A stretch of DNA of 43,480 nucleotides, taken from Promethearchaeota archaeon. Lineage in GTDB: Archaea; Asgardarchaeota; Lokiarchaeia; Sigyniarchaeales; SOKP01. Shown here in pieces: positions 39,350 to 40,357 of the stretch. Made by a program: the position numbers and the translations under genes. Numbering within the stretch: position 1 is the first letter of the stretch; each line of letters begins with the position of its first letter. The notes beneath the pieces are model-generated. The model had not been told where the DNA came from and ran no database searches. It was given only the letters and a program-made list of their open reading frames with translations. The DNA lies in contig JAGXNO010000033.1 in the NCBI GenBank assembly GCA_019894975.1, positions 1 through 43,480 of the forward strand, written 5' to 3'.

Positions 39350-40339
39350 TTATATGTGTAATCGAGGATCTAATGCATCCCTCAATCCATCACCTATTAA
39401 CATAAACCCAACAGCAGTAATTGCAATAAAAAGACCAGGCCAAAATACCGCATAATATGCACCCCAATGGCCTCTTCCATAATTAATATCTGTACCCCAA
39501 TCTGCAAAGGATGCATCCCCTAATCCCAAGAAAGCAATACCTACAAAACCTAAAATTGCACCTGCCATTCCTCCGAAGAAGCCAATTATAATAGGAGATA
39601 ATGCATTTGGCAACACATGTTTAAACATTACTTTGAATTTTTCTGCACCACTGGTTACTGCAGCTTCAACATACACATTCTGTTTTACTTGCAGCACTAA
39701 GGCCCTTACCCATCGAGCTGATCCGGGAATACCGAACAGACCAAAAAGGATTAGAATGTTATATAAGTTATTACCTATCAAGGGGGCTACAATAATTACA
39801 AGAATTAATGTTGGAAAAGAAAACCAAAAATCGCAAAAACGCATTATTAGCGAATCTATTTTTCCTCCGAAATATGCAGATATTGTTCCTATAGCAAGTC
39901 CTCCAACAGTACCGATTATAACCGGTAGAGCTGCTGCTGTCAGTGCGGTTCTTGCACCCCAAATTATTCTTCCAAGAATATCAAAACCATATTCTGTTGT
40001 GCCTAATGGATGATCTGCTGATGGGAGAAGAAACGGGGTCTCTGGAAGAAAGTCTGGTGGTGTTAAATTATCTACAGTAAATGGAGTTAACCAAGGAGCA
40101 AACATTCCTAAAAACGCAATAAATAAGATCATTACAAACCCCGCTATTGTTAGGGGGGTAAGTAAGCGTCGAAATAATTTCCTTTTTGATTTAATTTTGC
40201 CGATCTCAAATTCTCGAGTTTCAAAATCTGGATCCCGCCAACCAGGTATTAAATAAAATTTTACTAAACTAGATAAGCTTTTTTTATTACCTGTTTGATA
40301 ACCATATTCTTGAGTTTCTTCTAGAGATTGTTGTGTAAT
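39350..40339 (-). CDS. oppC: Oligopeptide ABC transporter permease (OppC/DppC); probable ATT start
   Basis: HPLGTTEYGFDI, EAA loop YVEAAVTSGA, KHVLPNAL, GDGLRDALDPR. The frame is open 69-71 codons upstream of ATG40132. Confidence 0.9.
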   Translation of the reverse strand: MTQQSLEETQEYGYQTGNKKSLSSLVKFYLIPGWRDPDFETREFEIGKIKSKRKLFRRLLTPLTIAGFVMILFIAFLGMFAPWLTPFTVDNLTPPDFLPETPFLLPSADHPLGTTEYGFDILGRIIWGARTALTAAALPVIIGTVGGLAIGTISAYFGGKIDSLIMRFCDFWFSFPTLILVIIVAPLIGNNLYNILILFGLFGIPGSARWVRALVLQVKQNVYVEAAVTSGAEKFKVMFKHVLPNALSPIIIGFFGGMAGAILGFVGIAFLGLGDASFADWGTDINYGRGHWGAYYAVFWPGLFIAITAVGFMLIGDGLRDALDPRLHI

Positions 40340-40357
40340 TTTGATTCACATCCTAAA

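Follow-up and report, generated by a model that had tools for sequence, protein, structure and literature searches.

Where does translation of oppC begin when its reading frame offers no canonical start codon before the middle of the first transmembrane (TM) helix? The gene lies on the minus strand of a 43,480-nucleotide stretch of DNA, analyzed here at its full length (the window), from contig C102 of MAG G000 (3.93 Mb, 31.6% GC, 95.4% complete, 8.55% contamination). The closest oppC loci bear the labels Promethearchaeota or Promethearchaeia, which makes the source a Loki-type Asgard archaeon. The oppC frame is open for 331 codons between TGA 40346-40348 and its stop, at 39350. The first ATG, GTG, or TTG (NTG) in that frame is ATG 40132 at codon 72, with 71 open codons upstream, and the entries in NCBI nr and ENA begin there, giving a protein of 260 aa. 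A preliminary description had proposed that the upstream codons are translated from ATT 40339, and that this reflects a wider use of ATH codons (ATT, ATA, or ATC) as starts.

The codons upstream of the first ATG of oppC are coding

The gene itself is an ordinary OppC/DppC permease. Its product carries a BPD_transp_1 domain (E 2.5e-29, 102.8 bits) and matches the DppC structure sequence 8z1v (E 4.5e-44); Pfam OppC_N aligns to residues 64-96 of the stop-to-stop frame with an E value of 5.6e-4 and a score of 20.2 bits, below the 23.9 cut-off. Pfam identifies the neighboring second permease and oppD, while oppF and oppA were judged from their translations. Fold, EAA-loop domain, and an operon with oppB, oppD, oppF, and oppA are shared with known OppC/DppC permeases (PF00528, PF12911; E. 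coli-type DppC 8z1v). Unlike in DppC, the N-terminal cytoplasmic part is about 30 residues longer, and unlike in the usual operon, both ATPases (34266-39332, minus strand) have a large membrane domain fused to the N-terminus. OppD, at about 1084 aa, has its ABC domain at residues 761-931, and conservation of its N-terminus extends over about 20 homologous loci.

Counted from ATT 40339, OppC has 329 aa and ATG 40132 becomes Met70. An AlphaFold model has the first TM helix at residues 62-79 (pLDDT 80), with Met70 midway along it; this residue aligns near residue 38 of DppC. The extension consists of a variable segment (residues 1-25), a conserved segment with predicted helices (residues 26-61), and the first half of TM1. 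Residues 26-69 are coding and under purifying selection: 28 to 40 of the 44 positions are identical in 13 homologs, and pS is 0.57-0.83 against a pN of 0.08-0.20 in 12 of the 13, like the gene body. A 96%-identical strain differs by only 4 synonymous and 4 nonsynonymous changes. Residues 1-25 vary freely, with pN about equal to pS. Three rows of the oppC DNA alignment (A1) covered the wrong region and were left out. The proposal of an extension lacking a canonical start thus stands, and the public start call at the internal ATG very probably cuts 69 residues from OppC. In one oppC homolog (L007:239-1153), a hydrophobic, different N-terminus replaces the usual first 28 residues.

An AUU codon behind a strong Shine-Dalgarno site is the probable start of oppC

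ATT 40339 stands 6 nt past AGGATGTGA, as had been described. In orthologs the same column mostly holds ATG (L002, L003, L005, L006, L008, L009, L010, L013, and L178); it is CTG in L001 and L012, ATA in L011, and again ATT at L156 and L179-L181. Locus L002 has the same Shine-Dalgarno (SD) end and 6-nt spacer, followed by ATG-ACA-CAA. The nearest OppC homolog (88%) is 329 aa long with Met in this column, and a 329-aa member of the 90% cluster containing OppC begins with Met there. Conservation is poor over residues 1-25, and pLDDT stays below 50 over residues 1-19, so that the choice of the exact codon rests on SD spacing together with the ATG column. ATC 40345, 0 nt from the SD, was rejected as the start. 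The locus thus shares three features with SD-directed near-cognate initiation of the infC/pcnB/ccpN kind: a stop-bounded frame with conserved coding sequence upstream of every NTG, a strong SD with a codon that differs from ATG by one base at the canonical distance behind it, and alignment of that codon with the ATG of orthologs. We consider it very probable that oppC starts at AUU 40339, by SD-positioned initiation with relaxed start-codon discrimination that would be a habit of the family.

The source is a MAG and the base is known from assemblies, so a sequencing or assembly error hiding a true ATG, or a decaying gene, might be suspected. The same ATT was read in three other ENA assemblies and in the 96%-identical strain, which comes from a JGI metagenome, and it is therefore not an assembly error. 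Decay is contradicted by an intact frame under purifying selection, and the genome-wide spacing peak described below cannot arise from random errors. We regard error or decay as extremely improbable.

Absent from the preliminary description was ATG 40351-40349, directly 5' of the bounding TGA. The two codons form a start-stop pair in the single frame shared by oppB and oppC, and the end of oppB lies 9 nt 5' of the TGA. Translation could in principle start at ATG 40351 and read through the TGA, by selenocysteine insertion or leakage, or re-initiate through the pair after oppB; the genome does encode a tRNA-Sec (TCA) (C44:65491-65583, minus strand). The ATG-TGA pair is not conserved, however, being absent from the orthologs compared, including L001 and L011, which themselves lack an NTG start, and it occurs in only 2 of 24 like cases of the genome. 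Moreover, no SD lies at a usable distance from ATG 40351, and such a route gives no account of the starts at 9931, 39332, and 1481 or of the genome-wide peak. It is very unlikely to explain oppC.

A further proposal was that the weak ATT start was selected as a means to lower or tune the output of OppC, and of OppD, relative to the other subunits. In favor of this, output from AUU/AUA starts in Staphylococcus aureus is about 10% of that from AUG, with conservation of some of these starts (PMC13009471). About 9 loci homologous to oppD have an ATH start, and three of the four intact oppC-like paralogs of the genome lack an NTG start. The last are C100:127 (+), C147:6727 (−), and C98:174870 (+), with ATT, ATA, and ATT, respectively; the fourth, more distant paralog has ATG in a similar SD context. 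The history of oppC points the other way. Most orthologs, including the nearest, have ATG, and in a tree of 24 sequences the non-canonical starts (ATT, CTG, and ATA) fall on about five separate, short branches with differing codons, with several forks weakly supported. OppB, OppC, OppD, and OppF work 1:1, which also speaks against tuning of stoichiometry, as does the functional miscellany of the genes affected genome-wide. For oppC we judge tuning unlikely and retain SD-positioned initiation at AUU 40339.

Other non-canonical starts in the window

The amidohydrolase, oppD, and a membrane protein gene also have putative ATH starts (Table 1). ATC 9931 lies 6 nt after GGTGA, and the metal-binding HxH motif of the amidohydrolase lies upstream of the first ATG, at 10018; databases hold a 258-aa short form. 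Its 18 orthologs in the family mostly have ATG or TTG within about 3 codons of this position, and others have GGTGA and ATA at the same spacing, which supports the proposed start. So does the start column of oppD, where about 9 homologous loci have ATT, ATA, or ATC and further ones have ATG. The weakest case in the window is ATA 1481, because its SD spacing of 10 nt is unusual; this start is nevertheless supported by P0019, which carries ATG in register with it. A search of 40 family genomes at 1e-30 gave no match to the 1481 protein, which has only two homologs overall. The NCBI nr entry is a short form in three of the four window cases.

Table 1. Features of the oppC locus and of other genes with putative non-canonical starts (window coordinates)
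Feature	Position	Strand	Evidence or remark
Membrane protein; GGTGA 1466-1470, putative start ATA 1481	1466..2119	+	72% homolog P0019
Amidohydrolase; GGTGA 9920-9924, putative start ATC 9931	9920..10794	+	Orthologs
oppF-like ATPase with N-terminal membrane part; ATG start	34266..36032	−	
oppD ATPase fused to large membrane domain; putative start ATT 39332 behind GAGGG (39345-39341)	36078..39332	−	
oppC, peptide ABC permease, 329 aa as redefined	39350..40339	−	Pfam BPD_transp_1, DppC 8z1v
First ATG (Met70, mid-TM1), start in NCBI/ENA calls	40130..40132	−	260 aa
69-codon OppC N-terminal part absent from annotation	40133..40339	−	pN/pS, model, DppC alignment
Putative oppC start codon ATT	40337..40339	−	6 nt after SD; ATG column in orthologs
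Shine-Dalgarno site AGGATGTGA	40346..40354	−	8/9 match to AGGAGGTGA; its TGA is the in-frame stop bounding oppC
ATG-TGA start-stop pair within SD	40346..40351	−	Shares the frame of oppB and oppC; not conserved
oppB permease; ATG start	40358..41425	−	Pfam

An audit of all 34 genes of the window revealed no fifth non-canonical start; a CTG start suspected at 22648 proved to be TTG. The earlier figure of 3-4 of about 35 genes is thus borne out locally (4 of 34), a rate above our genome-wide estimate of about 2-4%.

Other features of the window were noted in passing. A tandem array of three TPP-enzyme paralogs, with Zn-ADH and acyl-CoA dehydrogenase genes after it, occupies 18996-24360 (+); ORF finders placed the paralog starts too far upstream, and the likely ones are ATG 19041, ATG 20866, and TTG 22648. 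A 950-aa protein encoded at 31175-34027 (−) has no Pfam match. At 9562-9850, a 94-codon plus-strand frame (from 9566, with ATG at codon 6) overlaps a listed 92-aa minus-strand ORF, and the plus-strand frame looks the more protein-like.

Near-cognate codons are enriched at canonical SD spacing across the genome

No 16S gene is assembled in this genome or in two genomes of the same genus; the anti-SD used here was taken from the 16S 3' end GATCACCTCC, read in two genomes of the same order and a sister family. In the whole genome, 19 late-NTG ORFs have the TGA of a GGTGA as their bounding stop; 6 nt further on, 16 of the 19 have ATH, 1 has CTG, and 1 has ACG. A broader test took any 5-base SD match with no NTG within five codons. 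At 6-7 nt behind the SD, 58 codons were near-cognate and 62 were other, compared with 26 and 209 off-spacing (p=2.8e-14). Scrambled and complementary control motifs gave no enrichment in the same genome test (three motifs, p=0.29-1). With 166 canonical starts at the same 6-7 nt spacing, near-cognate codons would make up about a quarter of starts so placed behind a strong SD.

A per-ORF tally yielded 74 candidates (ATT 41, ATA 18, ATC 10, CTG 3, and ACG 2), about 56 above chance. Its spacing distribution is biased by the tie-break, and our spacing figures come from the GGTGA-TGA and 5-base SD-match sets; some late-NTG ORFs are gene fragments. An SD-independent homology test asked for a first NTG at least 12 codons inside a conserved block: 23 of 475 genes were positive, of which about 19 (4%) were credible by eye. 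An SD precedes the near-cognate codon in about 17 of these about 19, versus 118 of 376 (31%) canonical genes, a contrast somewhat inflated by there being several candidate codons per gene. Residue 2 is Ser, Thr, or Pro in 26 of 61 candidates, which resembles SD-plus-ATG genes (81 of 258) and differs from the residue after internal Ile (16%). One paralog pair (C100 versus L024) has ATG versus ATA in near-identical context, and further non-canonical cases occur among paralogs of the genome. From these counts we estimate that about 2-4% of genes are affected. The view that gene callers miss a relaxed, SD-guided initiation at ATH codons is strongly supported, with one amendment: CTG and ACG also occur, and the class is therefore near-cognate rather than ATN only.

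ATA, ATT, and ATC starts resemble mitochondrial usage, which would favor a changed genetic code in which ATA, or all of ATH, means Met. Inside genes, the three codons align to Ile in 50-54% of cases and to Met in 1.5-2.4%, while ATG aligns to Met in 42.5%, and a tRNA-Ile(GAT) is present. A mitochondrial-type code is thus refuted for elongation, where ATH is still Ile, and the chance that a changed code accounts for the starts is negligible. This assembly yielded no initiator tRNA gene. ARAGORN missed many tRNA genes with short introns, finding 16, compared with 29 by Rfam.

The signal is found in one family, and aIF1 itself has a weak start

Samples of 80-400 kb of DNA per genome were compared, from the family of this genome, a sister family, and other Asgard groups. 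The SD-spacing signal appeared in 400-kb samples of a same-genus genome (G005, p=0.001) and a same-family genome (G069, p=0.006), and was absent from 400-kb samples of two sister-family genomes (2 versus 7 and 3 versus 10). Pooled, the two families differ at p=0.004, with the caveat that kin are not independent. Samples of other Asgard groups gave no signal and were too small to exclude one. We infer that near-cognate starts are a family-level habit within the Promethearchaeia (Lokiarchaeia).

How could such codons be used? The SD pre-positions the archaeal initiation complex, and aIF1 proofreads (PMC6237735, PMC7531240). In the mechanism that we propose, the 30S subunit would pair with the SD, which would bring the codon 6-7 nt behind it into the P site, where initiator Met-tRNA would be accepted despite a mismatch at the third position (AUU, AUA, or AUC), the first (CUG), or the second (ACG). 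The oppC product would then begin Met-Thr-Gln. In an AT-rich genome, ATG might drift to ATT, ATA, or ATC where a strong SD compensates, a weaker suggestion. The least certain step is the reason for relaxed discrimination. Low aIF1 activity is a candidate, proposed because ATT is also the start of the gene for aIF1 (SUI1; C104:8813-9136, plus strand), which has no NTG before codon 89 of 108. Among the aIF1 loci of relatives (L046-L075 and L186-L215), the inspected members of the family start at ATT or ATA, and two sister-family genomes have TTG; CTG also occurs among relatives, ATG is found in some other Asgard families, and 5 of 24 aIF1 genes scored from other Asgard classes lack an NTG start. 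A weak start conserved across the lineage is seen for aIF1, in part for oppD, and not for oppC. The aIF1 pattern would fit an IF3-like feedback and possible autoregulation. That the whole family initiates at low stringency, with AUU, AUA, AUC, CUG, and ACG in routine use and aIF1 feedback resembling IF3/eIF1 autoregulation, is a model that we offer tentatively.

Fidelity residues, to which the preliminary description had pointed, yielded no explanatory lesion in aIF1, aIF1A, or aIF2-beta, and no diagnostic lesion was found in uS9. In aIF1, the zinc knuckle and the basic/aromatic residues of loop 1 are kept (RKWG versus RYG-type loops). Its residue matching Pyrococcus abyssi K34 is not basic, a change that is not diagnostic because many other Asgard aIF1s share it. 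aIF1A, aIF2-beta, and uS9 are intact. The terminal Arg of uS9 is retained; the protein ends in KSFR in two own-family genomes (L269 and L270) and in KSYR in three others, a sample too small to tie the difference to start-codon fidelity.

Comparison with known systems

AUU/AUA starts behind strong SDs are already known for a handful of bacterial genes, namely, infC and pcnB of E. coli and infC, cvfC1, ccpN, and citZ of S. aureus (PMC13009471). The present cases are like these in combining a near-cognate codon, normal spacing, and a strong or extended SD, in having been missed by annotation, and in including a fidelity-factor gene with a weak start, infC there and aIF1 here. They differ in scale and kind. 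S. aureus has four sites genome-wide, mostly conserved and regulatory, whereas here dozens to about 100 genes appear to be involved, all three ATH codons as well as CTG and ACG occur, the oppC start switches freely with ATG, and the machinery is that of aIF1, aIF1A, and aIF2.

Start switches in prokaryotes pair weaker starts with stronger SDs, and among 61,358 ancestral AUG starts, 1 had switched to AUU and 2 to CUG (Belinky, Rogozin, and Koonin 2017, PMC5622118). The drift to ATH with SD compensation suggested here would parallel that to GUG/UUG elsewhere; unlike in that survey, several AUU/CUG-type switches fall within one 24-sequence oppC tree. The survey may undercount such switches because it was built on annotated starts.

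The closest Asgard precedent is the tubulin AtubA, whose deposited protein was too short and whose start was moved to an ATT further upstream, at a plausible distance from an RBS (PMC13394414). AtubA and OppC are alike in this respect, but AtubA is one gene, termed "rare," from another Asgard lineage ("Kari"), and carries no genome-wide claim. Reviews of archaeal initiation name AUG, GUG, and UUG as start codons and regard lokiarchaeal SDs as rare, and Haloferax Ribo-seq placed near-cognate codons at about 30% of putative alternative starts, set aside as possible false positives (PMC7531240, PMC12993045, PMC7261190). SD-assisted start selection and the factors aIF1, aIF1A, and aIF2 are common to these accounts and to this genome; the relevant passages of the three papers describe no primary ATH starts of ordinary archaeal genes. 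Our search of the literature, largely in open-access journals, found no paper on a genome-wide near-cognate start habit and one single-gene Asgard case.

Significance

The novelty lies in the apparent family-wide start-codon habit, not in the oppC gene. By our estimate, public annotation truncates or misses 60-130 proteins in each genome of this family. The short form of the amidohydrolase loses its metal-binding motif, and such entries matter to anyone who expresses Asgard proteins or models their folds, a cost that AtubA shows. SDs mark a minority of genes here, yet they seem to license near-cognate starts, at a rate that would be far above reports for other prokaryotes. The family may thus allow the evolution of start-codon stringency to be put to the test among close relatives of eukaryotes.
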